The translations under genes were made by a program, and so were the position numbers. Of a stretch of 64,000 nucleotides of DNA, positions 2,512 to 31,523 are shown in pieces. The notes under the pieces were generated by a model, which was not told the DNA's origin, ran no database searches, and was given only the letters and a program-made list of their open reading frames with translations. The first letter of the stretch is position 1. Each line of letters begins with the position of its first letter. The DNA comes from Escherichia phage vB_Eco_F27: the sequence record OP870146.1. One strand, given 5' to 3'.

Positions 2512-3612
2512 TTACGCTGTGAAGATTTTATCCCACATCGCAACAACTGCATCTCGATTATACTTCTTCCATACTGCTTCAGCACGTTTAACTCGAGCTT
2601 CGTATGTGTCAGTAAATTCTAATACAGCTTTTGTGTAAAGCGCAACTACTTCTTTCTTAGGAGTAGAGGAATCAATTTCTACACGCACAGTATCTGGGTC
2701 GTATTCAAATGTCGCATGAGGATAATCCTTAAAAACTAACTGGATTACAGGGACACCTTTAGAGATGGCTTCAATAGAACTATTCTCTACCGTACCTGTG
2801 TCAGGACACGTATTAATAAGTGCTTTAGCTGTTTTAAGACGTTCCATGATTTCACTGTGTGGAGCATCAATAATAACAGGATACTTAGCCGGTGGTGCCC
2901 ATTTGCTTGGACAATAACCAATACCATTTTCGCCTAGTGCTTTAATCGCTTCAAGAGCAACATCAGTACGACGCATTTTAGTGTCATAACGTTGTGCACT
3001 AATAATCAGATCAGTCGCCGGAAGAACTTCAGGTTTCTCATTCAAACAAATAACCGGATAATCTTCGGCTTCAAACAACGGATTTGCTCGCCAATAATCA
3101 TAATCAATTTTGTCAGTCAGACCTGAAGTCATATAACAATATTTGCGTTCAAATTCACGGAAGGCTTTAGTAGGAGCATAACTCTTACCGCCATTCTTAT
3201 GAATTTGAATAGTCTGGTCCCAAATTTGAACAATGCCACGAGATACCGGTTCAAATGGTGTTGCCATAAAATTCTTATGAACTTTAGAGAGACCTGCGTC
3301 TTTAATTGCCTGAACGGTTAGTTTAGTCGGTTCCATAGTAACAACAAAATCGTATTCATGGATGCCGGCTAGTTCAACAATCTTACGAGCCATAGTATAA
3401 CTCATACCTAGACTGAATTTTGTCAGATGACCAACAGGATGATGATTAACCTTCCAATCACCAAACGTGTCATTATCAAAACCGATATAATCAATATCGG
3501 CACCAATAGAAACTAAATATTTCAACACATTTAAATGTACTGCTTCAAGACCACCTTGTACACGGTCAGGATTAAATGGGACTGCACGAGATGGGATAAA
3601 CATAACTTTCAT
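2512..3612 (-). CDS. putative glycosyltransferase, GT-B fold (candidate DNA hmC glycosyl/arabinosyl-transferase)
   Basis: 366 aa; N-terminal MKVMFIPSRAVPFNPDRVQGGLEAVHLN and C-terminal ENSSIEAISKGVPVI resemble GT1/GT-B donor-binding motifs; sits between rIIA and gene 39 where T4 has gene 60 and mobA. Confidence 0.55.
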   Translation of the reverse strand: MKVMFIPSRAVPFNPDRVQGGLEAVHLNVLKYLVSIGADIDYIGFDNDTFGDWKVNHHPVGHLTKFSLGMSYTMARKIVELAGIHEYDFVVTMEPTKLTVQAIKDAGLSKVHKNFMATPFEPVSRGIVQIWDQTIQIHKNGGKSYAPTKAFREFERKYCYMTSGLTDKIDYDYWRANPLFEAEDYPVICLNEKPEVLPATDLIISAQRYDTKMRRTDVALEAIKALGENGIGYCPSKWAPPAKYPVIIDAPHSEIMERLKTAKALINTCPDTGTVENSSIEAISKGVPVIQLVFKDYPHATFEYDPDTVRVEIDSSTPKKEVVALYTKAVLEFTDTYEARVKRAEAVWKKYNRDAVVAMWDKIFTA

Positions 3613-23707: not shown

Positions 23708-24872
23708 CGAAATCTTCCATTTCGTCAAGGTCGTTTTCTATATCTGCTGCAGACGGAGCATCAGAAGTTTTAACCGGAACTTTAGTTGTTGCTTTGCAAT
23801 TAATAAGGTCGTTAACAGCGTCATCAACTTCTTTAATAGAAGAGATAGCACCTAGTTTATATTTAGTTTCAATTGCATCTCGGAAAGGTTTGTGTTTAAA
23901 CAAAGGTCCCCAGAATTCTACACAATCAGTAGCTTTAGCACGCCATGATTTTTCTTCACGAATCATTTCACCTGTTTCTTCGTCAAGGAATTCACGAGCA
24001 TACCAACCAGCTTTAGGCTTAACAACAAATCCAATTTCAGTTGCCATTTCTAACAAGCCACTGAATGGATCAATACCGCCATCAAAATTAACCGTGATCG
24101 GGAAAGTAGATTTCTCTTTAACTGTACGAGATTTTTCTGCTTTCAACGTGAAGTCATAACCGGTCAATTCTGTACCTTCTTTAACCTGACGTTTAGAGAT
24201 AAAGAATACAGTGTTAGCAGAGTAAAGAATACCTGTACCACCACCCATAATCTCTTTAGGATATAGTCCGCCGATTTCCATTGCGGTATGGTTAATTGCA
24301 ACACACGGAATATCTTTAATAGTCAGATACGGGGTCACAATACGGAAAAGAGATTTAAGTGCCTTAGCACGAGACATATCACCTACAACTTTCTCGTTCA
24401 ACGCATCTTCGGTTTCTTTCTTAGATGCAGTATTACCGATTGAATCGATAAAGATAATAACTTTATCACCGCGTTCAATCGCGTCAAGCTGATTAGTCAT
24501 ATCAACTTTAAGTTGTTCGACAGATTGAATCGGAGTATGAACTACACGGTCTAAATCAACACCCATTGAACGAAAATAAGATTCCGAAGCACCGAATTCT
24601 GAGTCATAAAACAAACAGATTGCATCTTTATATTTCTTCATATATGCTGCAACCATGGTCAGTCCAAACAACGTTTTAAAGTGTTTAGAAGGAGCAGCAA
24701 AAATAGTCAAGCCTGATTGCAATCCTGCATTCAGAGCACCACCTAGTGCAATATTCAACATCGGAATACGAGTAGGGACTTCATCACGATTATTAAACAG
24801 CTTAGACTTAGTCAAGTCTGCAGTCATTTTAGAAGTAGAAGCTTTAATCAGACGAGATTTTAAATCAGACAT
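23700..24872 (-). CDS. uvsX: UvsX recombinase (RecA-like)
   Basis: 390 aa, MSDLKSRLIKASTSK..., RecA Walker A/B; close to recalled T4 UvsX. Confidence 0.95.
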   Translation of the reverse strand: MSDLKSRLIKASTSKMTADLTKSKLFNNRDEVPTRIPMLNIALGGALNAGLQSGLTIFAAPSKHFKTLFGLTMVAAYMKKYKDAICLFYDSEFGASESYFRSMGVDLDRVVHTPIQSVEQLKVDMTNQLDAIERGDKVIIFIDSIGNTASKKETEDALNEKVVGDMSRAKALKSLFRIVTPYLTIKDIPCVAINHTAMEIGGLYPKEIMGGGTGILYSANTVFFISKRQVKEGTELTGYDFTLKAEKSRTVKEKSTFPITVNFDGGIDPFSGLLEMATEIGFVVKPKAGWYAREFLDEETGEMIREEKSWRAKATDCVEFWGPLFKHKPFRDAIETKYKLGAISSIKEVDDAVNDLINCKATTKVPVKTSDAPSAADIENDLDEMEDFDE

Positions 24873-24925
24873 TGTATTTTTCCATAGGCATCATTATATT
24901 TTACTCATGTTTAAAAGATAAGATG

Positions 24926-24953
24926 ATTATATACTAAGGGTTATACAGCATTT
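24926..24953 (-). promoter_or_regulatory. possible MotA-dependent middle promoter upstream of uvsX
   Basis: Minus strand AAATGCTGTAtaacccttagtaTATAAT: MotA-box-like TGCTGTA 12 nt before -10. Confidence 0.35.
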
Positions 24954-24970
24954 AAAACTTTAAATGGCTC

Positions 24971-25519
24971 TTAACGAGCCCATTTGATAATTTCTGTAAT
25001 CAAATAATTACGTTCGCTTGCATTAAATCCTATAACTTTGTTAGCACCATCATGATTAAGTAATTGATACGTTTGGATTTTGTTATGAATTGCAAACTCT
25101 TCAAAATGTGAAATGACTGTATTAAAACCGAATGAAGACAAAGTAATAAGGTCGTCTTCAAAACTTTCAGTCATTTCGTTACGTGTTAAAATAATTGTGA
25201 ACACATCATGGTTTTGGCAAAGACGAACATAATCCTGCTCATAAACATCAAGAACAGAGTCCGCATCTTGTCGAATACGTCCATAAACCCAGTTACTAAT
25301 ATATCCACGGTCTAACAGATAAATCTTAGTAGGGTCTAAATAATTCAACATCGTTTCGAAACAACCAACTTCGTTTCGAGACTTAACATCGAAACGTCCA
25401 TCAACCGTTCGTTTAGGGAAATCAATCTTTACATATCTTTCACTAATTTCCATTATGTCATTAATGAAAGTTGTTTTACCAGCATTATCCGGGCCATCTA
25501 CTAAAATAATTTTAGCCAT
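24971..25519 (-). CDS. P-loop nucleotide kinase, thymidylate-kinase-like
   Basis: Walker A ILVDGPDNAGKTT; LLDRGYISNWVYG resembles Tmk DRY/S motif; occupies the slot where T4 has beta-gt. Confidence 0.55.
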   Translation of the reverse strand: MAKIILVDGPDNAGKTTFINDIMEISERYVKIDFPKRTVDGRFDVKSRNEVGCFETMLNYLDPTKIYLLDRGYISNWVYGRIRQDADSVLDVYEQDYVRLCQNHDVFTIILTRNEMTESFEDDLITLSSFGFNTVISHFEEFAIHNKIQTYQLLNHDGANKVIGFNASERNYLITEIIKWAR

Positions 25520-25520
25520 T

Positions 25521-26420
25521 TTATTCCTCGATTACAACATCTTCGTATTTAGGTATATTATACGGTGAAGAAATTAAAGCATTAAAGTAGATGAACTCAC
25601 CAAGACCTGGATGGAATACTTCTTCAGGATTTTCGAAATATTGAATCTTCGGACGTCCTTTAAGAATTTGATAGTACTCAGTTTTAGTTGGTTTAAAAAT
25701 TCGAATCAACGCTTCTTCAGGATACTTATTTCTGTCGAAGCTATTATTTGGATCGGTTATATAAAGCGGTTGACCTAATTGAATTGCGCATTCAACCACT
25801 TGTTCAAAACGATAGCATGGGTCACTAATTCGAAATGGATGAAAAATACCATCTAGATGAATAGGAGCCAAATCACCTACAAGACGCTGCATGATGGAAG
25901 GACGTATAACTTTCTGCGTTACGATAATCTTATTACCATCTGCACCAGCGTTAACCAGCACTTCTTTTTGACGTTCATTCAACACAGTAGTTTGAAGTGA
26001 ACGATTAACCGACAACATATCGGTTTTTAAGAATTCGTCAATATAAAAACGTGGTTTATTAGGGTCTGCAGTGATATTGAAATTGAATTCCACATCAAAA
26101 GCGCCGTCATATCCAGTGATATCTGTGATTAGAAAATCACAATCATAATAAGCAATTAATGAATCAACCACAAATTCATTTTCAGACCAGAAATATTTAC
26201 GAGTGTTATACGCGTTATCTTTATACCATAATGGAACAAACTTAAATTCTGGGAAAAGACGTTCACATTCTTTAATATCAGATGCATTACGTGGATATGT
26301 AATCACATCACCCGGATTAGCACGGTGCAAATGAAGTTGGAAGTTGCCATCCTTAAGGATAGCATACTGTCCAGTTTCATAAGACCGCATACTCAAAATA
26401 GGTACGCGGAAAATAGCCAT
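25521..26420 (-). CDS. hypothetical protein (candidate modification enzyme)
   Basis: 299 aa, no recognisable motif; in operon with gene 42 and Tmk-like kinase. Confidence 0.45.
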   Translation of the reverse strand: MAIFRVPILSMRSYETGQYAILKDGNFQLHLHRANPGDVITYPRNASDIKECERLFPEFKFVPLWYKDNAYNTRKYFWSENEFVVDSLIAYYDCDFLITDITGYDGAFDVEFNFNITADPNKPRFYIDEFLKTDMLSVNRSLQTTVLNERQKEVLVNAGADGNKIIVTQKVIRPSIMQRLVGDLAPIHLDGIFHPFRISDPCYRFEQVVECAIQLGQPLYITDPNNSFDRNKYPEEALIRIFKPTKTEYYQILKGRPKIQYFENPEEVFHPGLGEFIYFNALISSPYNIPKYEDVVIEE

Positions 26421-27136
26421 TAGTCAAGGAATCCTTTAACATAATCAAAATCACGTTCAAACACATGGGCACTTACCATGGTATGAGTATAATCACCAAC
26501 TTCTACACCGCATTCGTTAGCGATATAATGAAGTAATTTTCCTTGGAGATAAAAATCCAACTGCATAACAACAGCACAGTTCTGAGAACGCATATGACAA
26601 TGGGTATAAAGCTTACCATCACGAATATAATAAGTCACTGAGTCAGTACATGGATATTCAAGCGTTTCGTCTGAATCAAGCAAAGCCTGATCAGAACTTT
26701 CTAGAATTTGGAACACAACTCTTCGGGAGTTAGGCTTCTCTTTAAGTTCTTTTAGAAGAGCTGGTAATTGGGCCGCAATGCGAGGACCATAGAAAGTGTT
26801 GAAGTTCGCCGGCAAAACATCTGATTTTGGTTTAGAAATAAATTTAGCGACATTAGGATATGCCTTAAACGCTTCTTCTGCGTTGGTACCACCAGAAATC
26901 ATAAACTTCCAGAAGTCTTCGGCATATTCATAAGAGATGCGGTTAATACGTGGGTCGGTCATTTTGAATGATGATGGAGTGTCAACAACTACTGTCATAG
27001 ACCCAATTTCATTACAACGTCCAATACGAGAATCAGTTACGAATTCCGGGTTTTCTAAAATTTCACGATTGACTGCTTTAAATGCGGTTTGAAAATCTGC
27101 GGCTTTGATATATTTCATTGTGTTATGTTTTCCCAT
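26420..27136 (-). CDS. 42: dCMP hydroxymethylase (thymidylate-synthase superfamily)
   Basis: PCTDSVTYYIRDGKLYTHCHMRSQNCAVVM...HTMVSAHVFE matches the TS-fold active-site block (catalytic Cys, MRS, D); 238 aa close to T4 gp42 size. Confidence 0.8.
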   Translation of the reverse strand: MGKHNTMKYIKAADFQTAFKAVNREILENPEFVTDSRIGRCNEIGSMTVVVDTPSSFKMTDPRINRISYEYAEDFWKFMISGGTNAEEAFKAYPNVAKFISKPKSDVLPANFNTFYGPRIAAQLPALLKELKEKPNSRRVVFQILESSDQALLDSDETLEYPCTDSVTYYIRDGKLYTHCHMRSQNCAVVMQLDFYLQGKLLHYIANECGVEVGDYTHTMVSAHVFERDFDYVKGFLD

Positions 27137-27178
27137 GTTTACCTCAATACAATTTATTATATACTCAATTCGTAAAGC

Positions 27179-27418
27179 TTATTTGAATTTCTTGACAATG
27201 TTGATATAACGTAAAGCTTCAGCATCGATACTTCCAAGAACACTATGAAGAAATGCATCAGCGTAGTATTCCAATTGAACAGGTTCTTTAATCACTTTAG
27301 CCGCTTTAGTTTCAAACAGGCCCATCAGGGCCTTTTTAAGAATTTGTTCATTAGTGTTCAGTTTAATAGTCAAAATCTCTTCATTAAGTTGGTGGTTAAA
27401 AGTTTTTCTAGAAATCAT
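27179..27418 (-). CDS. hypothetical protein
   Basis: 79-aa ORF between Cys-rich enzyme and gene 42. Confidence 0.45.
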   Translation of the reverse strand: MISRKTFNHQLNEEILTIKLNTNEQILKKALMGLFETKAAKVIKEPVQLEYYADAFLHSVLGSIDAEALRYINIVKKFK

Positions 27419-28575
27419 TCCGGGTACCTCAAAGCGTCATCAGAGTTAGTTATATCAATAATAGATATAGAGTTTTCTGCTAACCCGTTTTTAGATAATT
27501 GACGTTTATAATATCTTTCACAATATGTACACGTCGTCCCGCAGATTTCATTAGCACAATCGAAATCTGGATGTCTGAACCACCTTTTTTCTAAAAAGCC
27601 ATCTAACAAAGAGGTTTCAATATTTACTGTATGTGAAAACTCGGTCTCATTTTCAAGAGTGAAAATAGTCTCTAAAGGCTTCCACAGTTCTAACAAATTA
27701 CCTTCAAACTTTTCAGAAGCGTATGCTTCAAGAACTTTCAAAATGTAGTCTGTGCTACCTGTACGTCCTGAAACTTTGAATTGAGTGATACCAATATCAT
27801 TATAAAGTTTCAAATCTTGAGGACGAACAAAACGAGTTCTCAACCAGTTAAATGGGTCTGTATCACGAGCTTTAATGCAGTGTTGCATTGGGTATCCGTT
27901 TAAGGATTTAGCATCATCAGCTGTAACATCAGTACTATGGAAAATATAGCAAGAGTCACGATAGCTACAATGTGTTGTATACCCTTTACCAGCATTAGAA
28001 CAGAACTCATTTACAAGAACTTCAAATATTATATTGTTCTTATTGCAAAACTCTGCTGCACGCTTCAGGAAAGAAACTGAACGGTTCTTATGAATTCCAC
28101 AGCAGACCTTTTTGATATTATATTGGTCATGCAAGTATTTGATTTGAGTTACAGCATCGACATGTAGAATTGTTGAAACTTCAATCTCAATGTCTTTATT
28201 GACTTCACGAACAATTTCCATAACAACAGGGTTAGCGATAGTAATACGCCATACGCCTATTGACCAAAGATACTGAACATAATCCTGAATAGCTTTCTTC
28301 TTCCACTCAACTAGTTCTCTTTTTGAACCAGGATTTATCGTGTTGAGTGTATAGTTAAAGCAAATACCTAATTCGTTACAACGTTTAACGTAATCTTCTA
28401 ACATCTTTTTGTCAACGTCAGGAAGCCTAAAATCAGGTCTGGCTGCTACAAAAGCCATTTCTCTTGTAGAGCCGTATACTTCGTTTATCAAGCTATTAGG
28501 ATAAGTTTTATTGAGCTCTACGATTTTATCAAGAAGAGCTAAATCAAAATTCGTTCCGATTTTAAAAGTATTCAT
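27415..28575 (-). CDS. Cys-rich hypothetical enzyme (possible Fe-S/metal cluster protein)
   Basis: 386 aa; FCSNAGKGYTTHCSYRDSC and C-terminal CANEICGTTCTYC (Cx4Cx3Cx2C); faint resemblance to peptidase-U32/TIM-barrel family. Confidence 0.45.
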   Translation of the reverse strand: MNTFKIGTNFDLALLDKIVELNKTYPNSLINEVYGSTREMAFVAARPDFRLPDVDKKMLEDYVKRCNELGICFNYTLNTINPGSKRELVEWKKKAIQDYVQYLWSIGVWRITIANPVVMEIVREVNKDIEIEVSTILHVDAVTQIKYLHDQYNIKKVCCGIHKNRSVSFLKRAAEFCNKNNIIFEVLVNEFCSNAGKGYTTHCSYRDSCYIFHSTDVTADDAKSLNGYPMQHCIKARDTDPFNWLRTRFVRPQDLKLYNDIGITQFKVSGRTGSTDYILKVLEAYASEKFEGNLLELWKPLETIFTLENETEFSHTVNIETSLLDGFLEKRWFRHPDFDCANEICGTTCTYCERYYKRQLSKNGLAENSISIIDITNSDDALRYPE

Positions 28576-28634
28576 TTTTTTTTTGCATCTCGCGTTAATT
28601 GGTGCGATGGTTTTTGCAGGTCTTACTTAAATTA

Positions 28635-29036
28635 TTATAGATTCGGTTTATATGATTTAAATGTTTCGAATTCGCCTTTATTCATAAGAGCTTTGAATTC
28701 GTCAGGACGCATAGCTTTGTCGTCGATAATCCAATCATATACTGGTTTATGTGTTAGCAAATTATGGTACTTCAAGCCAATGTTTGCCAAGTTCTGAATC
28801 AGACTTGGGAGAATGTCAATTGCTATACGACCAGGACCTACTGACTTCATACCGCGAGCAGTGTAAAGCGTTATGGTATGCCCTGCATCATACAGAGCAT
28901 TAATGGCAGACACCATTTCGACGTCTGGTTTGAAGTTCACGTAATCACGATTGTTATTCCACTCTGTTATACAATCATCGACATCAAAACAAAGATTAAG
29001 CATGTTTTCTACACGGTGCATTAGATTCGTTCCCAT
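28635..29036 (-). CDS. small HAD-family phosphatase, KdsC-like
   Basis: Motif I FDVDDCIT (same spacing as KdsC FDVDGVLT), motif II TLYTAR, Lys and terminal DD motifs. Confidence 0.6.
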   Translation of the reverse strand: MGTNLMHRVENMLNLCFDVDDCITEWNNNRDYVNFKPDVEMVSAINALYDAGHTITLYTARGMKSVGPGRIAIDILPSLIQNLANIGLKYHNLLTHKPVYDWIIDDKAMRPDEFKALMNKGEFETFKSYKPNL

Positions 29037-30706
29037 TGATGAGTGATATCGCCACCGATTGGACGATAGGAAACACCAGTTTCTTTATCAGTTAGTACCC
29101 ATTTACCAGGATTTTTTGTAATCAGAGTAGCCGTTACAGGTTCTGCTACGTCATAACTAATAGAGCCGTCTTGAAGTACACGGCCCATATTACGTAATTG
29201 CTTAGTCAGAAGTTCCATACCTTTATAATATGCGGCTACCGCTTTAAGTGGATTATTCTTGAAATAACCACCTAATGCAATCCAGATAATTGCCACTGCC
29301 AAATGATGATACTCGTTAAACGAACTCATCTTTCCATATTTGTAAACTAATGGATTGATGTTAATAGTCACATTACAAGTTGTTTCATCAATAGTAAACT
29401 GTCCCCAGGTCGGATTAGCGTTGAATTCATCATAACCTGAAACAGCATAAAGCACTTTAGCTTCATCATACAATTTTGGCCCGTAAATCTTTGTTTCGCC
29501 AAAATATCCACGAGGGTCGATAAATTTGACTTCGCCGTTATCAGTAATCATAGTATTACTGAAGTTCGGGTCACCATGAATAACAGAGTACTGTCCCTGA
29601 GAACGGTTATGATAACGAATAAGGTGTTCTAAAGCTTGTTTCAGCATTGGCTTCAGACGTCCAATCTTAGTGTAGTTCACATGTGTGATTTTACCAAATG
29701 AATCAATCAATGGTTGAATGCTTTCACAACGATCAATAACTTTCGTATAGAATTCTTTAGTGAAATCACGACGAACAGTTTCAGGACTTACAAAATAAGT
29801 GTCTGTGCTGAATTTCAGTGCATCTAAAATTGCATCAACAATTTGTGGACGAGCAAGACTTGATTTGGATTTAATATATTCAAATGCCGGCTTACCTTTA
29901 ATGCGTTCCATTTCAAAGTTATTTTCATTAACAGAAACTAACTGAGGGACTGAATCTGATTTCACTTTCAAATACCACGAAATCTCATCTTTCTGAAGAG
30001 CTCGGCCCTGTTCGGTTAATGCGAATTTAGTTACAGTTTCTTCACCAATTTCAACTGCATTAAAACTACGATTAAGTTCACGAACTTCATGAGCTTTTTC
30101 AAGTTTAGGCATATCACCTAAATCAATTAGATTCATAAGCTCTGATTTATTGAATGCGCTGGCGTAAAGGAATTCTACGAAATCACGTCCTTTGCAGTAT
30201 TCATGAATTTCCTCATCGGTAGAACCCATATAGAATTCCCAGTCTTTGAACTGATAAATTCCTACAACATTACCACCTGTTGAACCTACGTTAGTGATAT
30301 TTTCACCGTCGAAATTATATCGACATTCGTCACCCTTAACATAGATTGCGTTAACATTCCAAGACCATGAACCAAAATCAGGAATAATATCACACCAGTT
30401 AACAATTACGTTATGGCCGTCTAAATCTTTGTGTAATTTAGCAAGAGCATAAGCAGAACCATACGCTTCATCAACTGTACGAATAGTCACATTGAACCCT
30501 TCTTGCTCACAATAAGCTCGAACAGTTTCAGCAAATTTTGAATGAACTACTACAATAATTTCATCTGCGCCAAGGTCAGAATAAATTGTATACAAATTGC
30601 TCAGAATAGTGTCTTGTTTATAGTTAACAAGCACCTTAGGAATATGATGCGTTATTGGATATAAACGAGTTGCCAATCCAGCACCAAGAATAACAGCTTT
30701 TTTCAT
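29021..30706 (-). CDS. bifunctional sugar-1-phosphate nucleotidyltransferase / APH-type sugar kinase
   Basis: N-terminus ILGAGLATRLYPIT..PKVLV (RmlA/GlmU-type G-x-G-T-R-L); C-terminus HGDPNFSNTMITDNGEVKFIDPRGYFG (APH/choline-kinase Brenner and DFG-like motifs). Confidence 0.7.
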   Translation of the reverse strand: MKKAVILGAGLATRLYPITHHIPKVLVNYKQDTILSNLYTIYSDLGADEIIVVVHSKFAETVRAYCEQEGFNVTIRTVDEAYGSAYALAKLHKDLDGHNVIVNWCDIIPDFGSWSWNVNAIYVKGDECRYNFDGENITNVGSTGGNVVGIYQFKDWEFYMGSTDEEIHEYCKGRDFVEFLYASAFNKSELMNLIDLGDMPKLEKAHEVRELNRSFNAVEIGEETVTKFALTEQGRALQKDEISWYLKVKSDSVPQLVSVNENNFEMERIKGKPAFEYIKSKSSLARPQIVDAILDALKFSTDTYFVSPETVRRDFTKEFYTKVIDRCESIQPLIDSFGKITHVNYTKIGRLKPMLKQALEHLIRYHNRSQGQYSVIHGDPNFSNTMITDNGEVKFIDPRGYFGETKIYGPKLYDEAKVLYAVSGYDEFNANPTWGQFTIDETTCNVTININPLVYKYGKMSSFNEYHHLAVAIIWIALGGYFKNNPLKAVAAYYKGMELLTKQLRNMGRVLQDGSISYDVAEPVTATLITKNPGKWVLTDKETGVSYRPIGGDITHQWERI

Positions 30707-30747: not shown

Positions 30748-30891
30748 CTAGTTAAAGCATTCATACTTTGCTTGTAGTCCAATCATAATCCATCCAATTA
30801 CAAGTGTTGGAATCATTACTGGAGCCGTTAAGCTCCAGTAGATAGTCATGACAAGCATCAATAGTAAAAGTCCTATTGTTATTGCTTTCAT
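30748..30891 (-). CDS. small membrane protein
   Basis: 47-codon ORF not in track (MKAITIGLLLLMLVMTIYWSLTAPVMIPTLVIGWIMIGLQ...); ATGA overlap with SIS gene stop. Confidence 0.4.
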   Translation of the reverse strand: MKAITIGLLLLMLVMTIYWSLTAPVMIPTLVIGWIMIGLQAKYECFN

Positions 30892-31523
30892 TGCTCGCCT
30901 CGTAACATGGCACCTAGTGCACCACCTGGATGGAACTTAAGGAAATCATTAGAGGTAAATCCACGTTCAGACGAAAGGTTGATAGCAAACGTATCGATAA
31001 GCGCTAACAACAATGTAGTGGACATAGTCGGAGCCAGAGAATTCTCATCAACCTCTACTGCGATGCCTGCACAGAAAGAATAATCAAAAAGGGCTTCATT
31101 TTCTTGTGGAATGTCCGGGTTACAATGCAACAGAATCTGTTTGACGTTCGGTCGAATCATTTTAAGATGCTTAGCCACGCCTATCATTTCTTCAGTTTTA
31201 CCAGAACGACTAATATGAATCAACACGTCATTAGGCGCAATAAATCCTGCATCACCGTGAGAATAATGCCCAGTGTTCAAGTACATACTCGGGATACCGA
31301 GTGAAGCAAATGTCTCAGAAGCTTTAGTTGCAATATTAGCATTCTTACCAACACCTGTAATAATTACACGACTTTCATAATTACTCAGTCCCGGGCGTCG
31401 AAGAGTTTCTAGAATAGCATTATAACGAGCAGGGTTTTGACTAATTACTTTGGCCATAGCGGCCAAAGAAGAAGCTTGTTTTATGATTGCGTCAATAGCG
31501 ATAGTAATAGGAGTAGTTTTCAT
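30888..31523 (-). CDS. SIS-domain sugar-phosphate isomerase, arabinose-5-phosphate isomerase (KdsD/GutQ)-like
   Basis: VIITGVGKNANIA ... HGDAGFIAPNDVLIHISRSGKTEE ... APTMSTTLLLALIDTFA ... FHPGGALG match SIS motifs. Confidence 0.75.
   Translation of the reverse strand: MKTTPITIAIDAIIKQASSLAAMAKVISQNPARYNAILETLRRPGLSNYESRVIITGVGKNANIATKASETFASLGIPSMYLNTGHYSHGDAGFIAPNDVLIHISRSGKTEEMIGVAKHLKMIRPNVKQILLHCNPDIPQENEALFDYSFCAGIAVEVDENSLAPTMSTTLLLALIDTFAINLSSERGFTSNDFLKFHPGGALGAMLRGEQ

Follow-up and report, generated by a model that had tools for sequence, protein, structure and literature searches.

Gene content of the locus

The window, a stretch of 64,000 nucleotides of Escherichia phage vB_Eco_F27 (OP870146.1), carries two adjoining minus-strand genes between uvsX and the homologue that stands at the gene 42 position (Table 1). 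One encodes a P-loop kinase of 182 aa, in which the motifs VDGPDNAGKTT and DRGYIS correspond to residues 7-17 and 70-75, and the other a protein of 299 aa. Both open reading frames are present as the original prediction described them. It had further placed them in the exact slot of the T4 beta-glucosyltransferase gene. The place is the same, but the T4 order there is uvsX - segA - beta-gt - 42, so that T4 has segA in it as well.

Table 1. Genes of the module and associated features in the window
Feature	Position	Strand	Remarks
Second glycosyltransferase, 366 aa (RB69 gp3 type)	2512..3612	-	near-identical to PDB 9iqz/9ir0
UvsX, 390 aa	23700-24872		downstream of kinase; ~69% identity to Tequatrovirus UvsX
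Tmk-fold P-loop nucleotide kinase, 182 aa	24971..25519	-	RB69 gp45 orthologue; predicted 5-hydroxy-dCMP kinase
Predicted compact GT-B glycosyltransferase, 299 aa	25521..26420	-	RB69 gp46:47 orthologue; predicted base-proximal arabinosyltransferase on 5-hydroxycytosine
Thymidylate-synthase homologue, 238 aa, assigned as 5-hydroxy-dCMP synthase	26420-27136	-	Pfam Thymidylat_synt E 2e-15
79-aa ORF	27179..27418	-	position of chorismate mutase in sister genera
Peptidase_U32-family protein, 386 aa (RB69 gp50)	27415..28575	-	Pfam PF01136 E 7e-11, above cut-off
HAD-type phosphatase (RB69 gp51 / HY126 AfhF type)	28635..29036	-	TIGR01689 capsule-biosynthesis phosphatase E 4e-13
Sugar-1-phosphate nucleotidyltransferase + kinase, 561 aa (RB69 gp52:53 / HY126 AfhE type)	29021..30706	-	
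SIS-domain arabinose-5-phosphate isomerase (RB69 gp55 type)	30888..31523	-	Pfam SIS E 2e-10

The genes are tightly packed. The stop codon of the synthase gene overlaps the start codon of the 299-aa gene (TAATG), and the stop codon of the latter is separated by one base from the kinase ATG, within a junction that contains a GAGGA ribosome-binding site (GAGGAATAAAATG). Operon structure gains no support from a scan for promoters and terminators between 24700 and 28800, because the counts match those expected from shuffled sequence (15 vs 16 and 2 vs 2, respectively). That the two open reading frames are real genes rather than chance ones follows from their occurrence in 343 (kinase) and 348 (299-aa protein) phage records, whose distribution among genera is the same, and from the 138 protein clusters gathered by homologue search at E<=1e-3.

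DNA identity of the region reaches 99.0% with Escherichia phage AlbertHofmann and 98-99% with about 150 other Mosigvirus genomes. The kinase protein is 98.9% identical to that of RB69 and 98.4% to that of HY126, and for the 299-aa protein, identity to the combined RB69 ORF046c and ORF047c amounts to 99.3%. Judged by sequence, the window is that of a Mosigvirus (RB69-like).

Several further genes are of the kind required for sugar supply. Roles in UDP-arabinofuranose synthesis are taken from PMC13326640 for the HAD-type and bifunctional proteins; the latter shows an N-terminal Pfam NTP_transferase match (E 8e-10) and C-terminal matches of the APH/fructosamine-kinase-like type. For the SIS-domain gene, the syntenic counterparts in HY126 and NRG-P0074 bear the annotation D-arabinose-5-phosphate isomerase. 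For the sugar-activation steps, PMC13326640 cites the afh genes of HY126 (He et al., 2026) and the work on Bas46/47 (Mahler et al., 2025). The second glycosyltransferase aligns over its full length with the structures 9iqz/9ir0, deposited as 'phage HY126 glycosyltransferase' (E 3e-250), and gp3-type enzymes are proposed to add the second arabinose (PMC13326640).

The synthase and the predicted GT-B glycosyltransferase

The neighbour of the 299-aa gene had been read as gene 42. Along its entire length, the encoded protein shares about 97% identity with the HY126 enzyme of known structure (PDB 9iqc/9ir2/9iqu). Within its motif RSQN...D, an Asn is found at the position of ThyA D169 and an Asp at that of N177, whereas T4 gp42 and E. 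coli ThyA have Asp at 169. Asn at the D169 position is diagnostic for 5hodCMP synthases, and RB69 gp48, a thymidylate-synthase homologue, makes 5-hydroxy-dCMP with flavin and O2, its DLP3 orthologue being active too (PMC13326640). Because of the D169N signature and of the near-identity to the HY126 enzyme, the protein is best described as a flavin- and O2-dependent 5-hydroxy-dCMP synthase, not a dCMP hydroxymethylase; on the strength of this signature and of the published chemistry, the gene 42 reading has to be abandoned. Moreover, the protein would result from a displacement and not from the divergence of gene 42, since it shares only 24% identity with T4 gp42, against 55% with the synthase of an unrelated metagenomic contig of 122 kb.

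The nature of the modified base points in the same direction. Arabinose on RB69 cytosines was described by Thomas et al. in 2018, and the base was then reported as arabinosyl-hmC (PMC6024577). According to mass spectrometry and NMR data, the RB69 base is not hmC but 5-hydroxycytosine bearing one or two arabinofuranosyl residues (Lee et al., NAR 2026, PMC13326640). In the literature, arabinosyl-5-hydroxycytosine has been shown chemically in RB69, NicPhage and Bas46/47. These data bear directly on the proposal that the 299-aa protein would be the transferase for hmC made by a gene-42 hydroxymethylase, the kinase feeding NDP-sugar synthesis. Such a model could appeal to the genomic slot shared with T4 beta-gt and to the first description of the RB69 base. 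However, that description was corrected by the NMR and mass spectrometry data, the synthase is of the D169N type and the kinase is also found in cassettes without arabinose genes (see below), so that the model must be held extremely improbable.

The 299-aa protein has no recognizable sequence motif, as had been noticed at the outset. It matches nothing in Pfam or NCBIfam at E<=0.1, gives no Glycos_transf_1 or Glyco_trans_4 signal, belongs to PHROG 3891 ('unknown function') and retrieved nothing useful in a PDB sequence search. Its AlphaFold model, built from a 59-sequence alignment (pLDDT 95.3, pTM 0.90), consists of two Rossmann-like domains that can be superposed on known GT-B enzymes. This outcome agrees with the published result. 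Neither sequence similarity nor close structural similarity to T4 beta-GT was observed. The family has a median pI of 5.15, as compared with 9.05 for T4 beta-GT and 6.1 for T4 alpha-GT; because T4 alpha-GT is also acidic, this value is weak and uninformative as evidence against DNA binding.

The company kept by this family is informative as to the acceptor. Its members occur solely in the presence of a D169N-type synthase or a U32 protein; gut-phage cassettes that are otherwise syntenic but encode an hm-type (D169) synthase lack them. The 299-aa protein is predicted to be the first, base-proximal, arabinosyltransferase acting on 5-hydroxycytosine, a role that fits an alpha-linked proximal arabinose. 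The proximal arabinose is indeed reported to be alpha-linked, and proteins of this type were earlier predicted by Lee et al. to be arabinosyltransferase 1 (PMC13326640). Thus, of the proposal of an hmC transferase, the transferase part survives, as a predicted GT-B fold, but the acceptor would be 5-hydroxycytosine.

Another function has to be considered for the same protein. TH1_063 of phage Thanatos is a syntenic orthologue with 47.5% identity, encoded in the order TS - GT - kinase, and in vitro formation of UDP-xylose has been reported for it (PMC12838424). In this case, the 299-aa protein would be a sugar-1-phosphate nucleotidyltransferase, that is, a UDP-pentose pyrophosphorylase, instead of a DNA transferase. 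This is very unlikely in view of the predicted fold, which is GT-B and not that of a nucleotidyltransferase. In addition, the 561-aa gene of the cluster already encodes an NTP_transferase domain, and its HY126 counterpart makes UDP-arabinose, as cited in PMC13326640.

The Tmk-like kinase and the distribution of the module

In the model of the kinase (pLDDT 87.9), thymidylate kinase (Tmk) is the closest fold. The P-loop is intact and, like the FPKR and DR motifs, invariant across the family. Sequence comparisons with curated models were negative: the score against TIGR00041 is 16.0 bits, below the cut-off of 83.25, and Pfam PF02223 gives no match with the window protein and weak matches with 13 of 28 relatives (best E 2e-4). 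A PDB sequence search returned chance P-loop matches only, and the family profile could be aligned with human TMPK over the first 38 residues only. A DNA-base kinase resembling 5-HMUDK was also considered for this gene and rejected, phosphorylation of the 5-hydroxyl being chemically senseless as a route to O-glycosylation.

The context of the kinase was studied by scanning IMG/VR with the alignment of the 299-aa family, which gave 52 loci, and then with profiles for the transferase, the kinase and the synthase. Three loci are truncated, leaving 49 that could be assessed. Across these T4-like and other viral genomes, the kinase gene lies on the same strand and less than 3 kb from the transferase gene in 47 cases: directly downstream of it in 33, in the order kinase - TS - GT in 6 (Dhakavirus), 2.0-2.8 kb upstream in 5 and immediately 5' of it in 3. 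Two loci with full flanks have no kinase. Of the 45 loci in which position 169 of the synthase could be read, 43 have Asn, and one of the two exceptions is probably a mis-read of the regular expression. Contigs that do not belong to T4-like phages keep the trio, at identities of 28-38%, and no arabinose genes occur in them within 6 kb of it; the kinase stays beside the transferase there down to 28-30% identity. The trio is also kept in Shewanella phage Thanatos (TH1_062, TH1_063 and TH1_064) and in Rhizobium phage RL38JI, a hexose user (PMC13326640).

A search from the kinase side, with the corresponding profile, led to human-gut phage contigs of about 50 kb, in each of which a cassette immediately precedes a PolIII-alpha gene. 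Two of them (L055 and L056) show the order dUTPase_2 - GT - kinase - GT (299-aa family) - U32, and a third one (L064) the order kinase - radical SAM - GT (299-aa family) - U32. In two others (L062 and L063), the kinase is followed by a radical SAM protein, a 371-aa protein and a TS homologue of the hm type (RSND, Asp169), and in the last one (L065) by a 293-aa protein and a TS homologue with RSND. What these cassettes have in common is the kinase, whether they contain an hm-type TS homologue or a U32 protein.

The arabinose-free contigs, RL38JI and the gut-phage cassettes indicate that the kinase tracks a modified pyrimidine nucleotide, and not the sugar or one particular transferase. Because the module recurs in the great majority of assessable loci, including phages unrelated to T4 that have no arabinose genes, the kinase most likely phosphorylates a modified dCMP, which in the present case would be 5-hydroxy-dCMP. 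Two roles had been put forward originally for the kinase. The comparative context favours phosphorylation of a modified dNMP; supply of an NDP-sugar loses ground, as the kinase is also present where the cassette is devoid of arabinose genes. From the same comparisons, the synthase-transferase-kinase set can be viewed as a portable cassette, which in this lineage would have replaced gene 42 plus beta-gt.

It could also be argued that the enzyme is an ordinary thymidylate kinase, boosting the dTTP supply and having no role in DNA modification. Its closest folds are thymidylate kinases, and 'thymidylate kinase' is the label used in many records and in PHROG 761. Nevertheless, the failure of the curated models mentioned above, a distribution nearly identical to that of the transferase and the location beside modified-pyrimidine enzymes in unrelated phage lineages make this quite improbable. 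Furthermore, T4-like phages already make dTDP by means of the gp1 kinase.

Published statements on the kinase have changed with time. In a June 2025 preprint, Lee et al. presented RB69 gp45 and DLP3 gp78 as 'cognate dNMP kinases', co-expressed with the synthase to obtain 5hodC in DNA. The final NAR text names gp169 and gp159 instead, and phosphorylation of 5hodCMP is credited to RB69 gp159, of the gp1 type, not to gp45 (PMC13326640). Whichever version is considered, a nucleotide-kinase role for gp45 is regarded as natural from the authors' point of view. If gp159 phosphorylates 5hodCMP, the Tmk-like kinase would be redundant in T4-like phages. In the accessible literature, no demonstration of an enzymatic activity was found for the kinase or for the 299-aa protein.

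A separate observation concerns the Peptidase_U32-family gene. Members of the U32 family include RlhA, TrhP and UbiU/UbiV, which work without O2; prephenate is the product of chorismate mutase. In prephenate-dependent reactions, RlhA forms 5-hydroxycytidine in 23S rRNA and TrhP 5-hydroxyuridine in tRNA (reviewed in PMC13602947). A chorismate mutase of the CM_2 family adjoins the U32 gene in Kanagawavirus and in Edwardsiella, Klebsiella, Pectobacterium, Serratia, Yersinia, Proteus and Thanatos phages, that of Entb_45 matching Pfam CM_2 with E 2e-10. In the window, no CM_2 gene was found. The 79-aa ORF has no match in Pfam, NCBIfam or the PDB, and a chorismate mutase assignment was discarded for it, as it is unrelated to the Entb_45 CM_2 protein encoded at the same position.

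In gut-phage cassettes, the U32 protein replaces the TS homologue beside the same transferase and kinase families. Ten of its Cys are invariant, and identity does not fall below 81.6% in any of the 221 phage records. The Thanatos-1 protein shares 81% identity with that of the window, as against 47% for the transferase and 44% for the kinase. No Acinetobacter phage record has the gene, and about 40 of the 176 Escherichia records carrying the transferase lack it as well; among the loci examined, it is missing from Dhakavirus, Acinetobacter and Pseudomonas phages. A PDB sequence search with the protein gave nothing useful, and Lee et al. list it only as a 'sugar or heterocycle reductase' (PMC13326640). 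The U32 protein is a candidate O2-independent pyrimidine C5 hydroxylase, which may thus act as an oxygen-independent cytosine hydroxylase and offer a route to 5-hydroxycytosine. No published link between U32 proteins and oxygen-independent formation of 5-hydroxycytosine was found in the literature searched.

Proposed pathway and comparison with known systems

The two genes are probably part of a 5-hydroxycytosine glycosylation module of RB69-like phages, for which a pathway in four steps may be proposed. In the first step, shown for near-identical orthologues, the TS homologue would hydroxylate dCMP to 5-hydroxy-dCMP with flavin and O2. The 182-aa kinase would then convert 5-hydroxy-dCMP to the diphosphate, in overlap with the dNMP kinase of the gp1 type, after which host Ndk and the phage polymerase would bring 5-hydroxycytosine into DNA. 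In the third step, the 299-aa GT-B enzyme would place D-arabinofuranose from UDP-Araf on the 5-hydroxyl, yielding the base-proximal alpha-arabinoside. The adjoining isomerase, kinase/uridylyltransferase and phosphatase genes would provide UDP-Araf. Finally, the gp3-type transferase would add the second arabinose.

The main rival to this pathway is a model in which glycosylation would precede replication. The 299-aa transferase would arabinosylate free 5hodCMP, the Tmk-like kinase would phosphorylate the glycosylated nucleotide and the polymerase would incorporate a sugar-bearing dCTP. The Tmk-like kinase would then exist because a gp1-type kinase cannot take the bulky arabinosyl-5-O-dCMP. Several features would be accounted for: translation of the transferase and kinase genes is coupled and the two are neighbours in nearly all cases, the transferase family is acidic, and a second, otherwise redundant NMP kinase has been kept despite a gp1-type kinase able to use 5hodCMP. 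However, to our knowledge, all characterized phage cytosine glycosyltransferases (T4 alpha- and beta-GT) act on DNA. Moreover, hm-type synthases and non-homologous proteins are also found as partners of the kinase, as would be expected of a plain modified-dCMP kinase. Published experiments can be invoked on both sides. Lee et al. saw no arabinosylation of 5hoC-DNA by single DLP3 glycosyltransferases, and left undecided whether the first arabinose is added at the mononucleotide or at the DNA level (PMC13326640). On the other hand, DLP3 gp76/gp77 work on DNA, and E. coli readily incorporates 5hodC in DNA, which makes an unglycosylated route feasible (PMC13326640). The preprint also implies that gp45 works with 5hodCMP. 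On balance, the pre-replicative model is unlikely; if true, this would be glycosylation of a phage nucleotide ahead of replication, for which no precedent is known.

The original prediction is therefore partly supported: the module, as we would now read it, is directed to 5-hydroxycytosine. DNA arabinosylation is already known from RB69, HY126, Bas46/47 and DLP3, and since the pathway has been described in these phages, the window adds no new type of system. The importance of such pathways lies in the fact that phage DNA is hidden from restriction enzymes, CRISPR-Cas and DNA glycosylases. The GT-B result for the 299-aa protein having been published previously, what the present analysis adds is the comparison of IMG/VR loci and gut-phage cassettes, which narrows the question of the kinase substrate to a modified pyrimidine nucleotide, as opposed to a sugar.

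Each of the two proteins has distant structural relatives. GT4-type GT-B transferases, such as sucrose-phosphate synthase (6kih), BshA (6n1x) and PimA (2gej), share 7-12% identity with the 299-aa protein. Where these enzymes have the EX7E region, the 299-aa protein reads HPGLGE instead, within the segment HPGLGEFIYF, in which H270-P271-G272 are invariant. Thymidylate kinases, including vaccinia A48R (2v54) and the S. aureus enzyme (4dwj), are 8-19% identical to the window kinase, below the curated thresholds. The P-loop Arg of type I Tmk is replaced by an invariant Asn12 in the window kinase family, and the segment from FPKR to DR is about 20 residues shorter than in thymidylate kinases. The substrate also differs, being dTMP for thymidylate kinases, whereas the genomic context of the window kinase is that of a modified dCMP. 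In this respect, T4 gp1 is a functional parallel: it is a phage kinase that phosphorylates a modified dCMP, hmdCMP in T4. No structural or sequence similarity links the window kinase to gp1 (1dek). The RB69 homologue of gp1, gp159, phosphorylates 5hodCMP (PMC13326640).

The closest comparison is with RB69, HY126 (He et al., Nat Chem Biol 2026) and Bas46/Bas47 (Mahler et al., Cell Host Microbe 2025). The synthase signature, the gp45 and gp46:47 orthologues, the UDP-Araf genes and the gp3-type transferase of the RB69/HY126-type cluster are all present. Orthologues have 98-99% protein identity with those of RB69 and HY126, with the same gene order, synthase signature and predicted roles, and there is no difference of substance. 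The RB69 reference record splits the 299-aa gene into ORF046c and ORF047c, a sequencing error according to Lee et al., whereas the gene is intact in the window.

The Tmk-like kinase and the gap before uvsX

The function of the Tmk-like kinase is directly concerned by a discrepancy between the two versions of the study of 5-hydroxycytosine in RB69 and DLP3. In the legend of its Figure 3, the preprint (bioRxiv 10.1101/2025.06.16.659550) gives DLP3 gp78 and RB69 gp45, which are Tmk-like kinases, as the "cognate dNMP kinases" that were expressed together with the synthase. The published version instead names gp169 and gp159, of the gp1 type, as the co-expressed kinases (PMC13326640).

Between the stop codon of the kinase and the start of uvsX lies an AT-rich gap of 98 bp (24873-24970). 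On the minus strand, it carries aaaTGCTgta at about 24953-24944 followed, after 14 nt, by TATAAT at 24931-24926. Judged from its sequence, this element resembles a T4 middle (MotA-box) promoter, which would serve uvsX. It is not among the matches listed by a simple sigma-70 scan of positions 24700-28800.

Orthologues of the predicted 299-aa transferase

TH1_063, the Thanatos orthologue of the predicted GT-B transferase, has been described as a UDP-xylose pyrophosphorylase in vitro (PMC12838424). A GT-B fold sits poorly with such an activity, which may correspond to a reverse reaction, to a side reaction or to a contaminant. In the RB69 reference record (AY303349, 24600-25497), the gene is split into ORF046c and ORF047c, and its match to the window's gene falls into two parts. 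A single intact 299-aa ORF is present in the window and in about 340 other records, and the split is consistent with a sequencing error in the old RB69 record.

Features discussed, in the window and in the compared phage loci
Feature	Location	Strand	Remark
Peptidase_U32-family gene	window 27415-28575	-	within modification cluster
79-aa ORF	window 27179-27418	-	unrelated to chorismate mutase; at CM_2 position of sister genera
Thanatos TH1_063	L060 4995-5897		orthologue of window 25521-26420, 47.5% identical
U32 comparison loci	L061 4489-5897; L060 6462-7852; L056 3465-6029; L064 5001-8672
NRG-P0074 genes	L001 12174-12935; 12920-14605		loci concerned by the differences
Flavodoxin_2-family gene	L005 4739-5293		directly upstream of TS homologue
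Flavodoxin_2-family gene	L035, L037, L038, L040-L042, L044-L046, L048, L050, L058		same position
Radical-SAM (SPASM) gene	L062/L063 5514-7567; L064 5519-6541		gut-phage cassettes

Variation of the cassette

In the close relative NRG-P0074, a homing-endonuclease gene, absent from the window, is inserted between the HAD phosphatase and 561-aa bifunctional genes. The record labels these "phosphoheptose isomerase" and "dCMP deaminase", respectively; both are probably mis-annotations.

Directly upstream of the D169N synthase gene, non-T4 metagenomic contigs carry a gene of the Flavodoxin_2 family (Pfam E 2e-13). Its product could plausibly be a dedicated flavin reductase for this flavin-dependent hydroxylase. 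T4-like phages, including this one, are devoid of it. In gut-phage cassettes, a radical-SAM (SPASM) gene stands between the Tmk-like kinase and transferase or hydroxylase genes, a placement which suggests further, undescribed cytosine hypermodifications.

The U32-family protein

The U32 protein is at least 81.6% identical across all 221 phage records, with ten invariant cysteines. Among the records and loci examined, its gene is missing from Acinetobacter phages and Dhakavirus. In the cassettes of the gut-phage contigs of about 50 kb, U32 replaces the TS homologue, beside the same transferase and kinase families. Prephenate-dependent hydroxylation is known for RlhA and TrhP (PMC13602947). In many sister genera, a CM_2 chorismate mutase gene pairs with the U32 gene; the window has no chorismate mutase, the 79-aa ORF occupying that position. 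Because the cellular U32 proteins RlhA, TrhP and UbiU/V are prephenate-dependent hydroxylases, the phage protein may, by analogy, be an O2-independent cytosine C5 hydroxylase.
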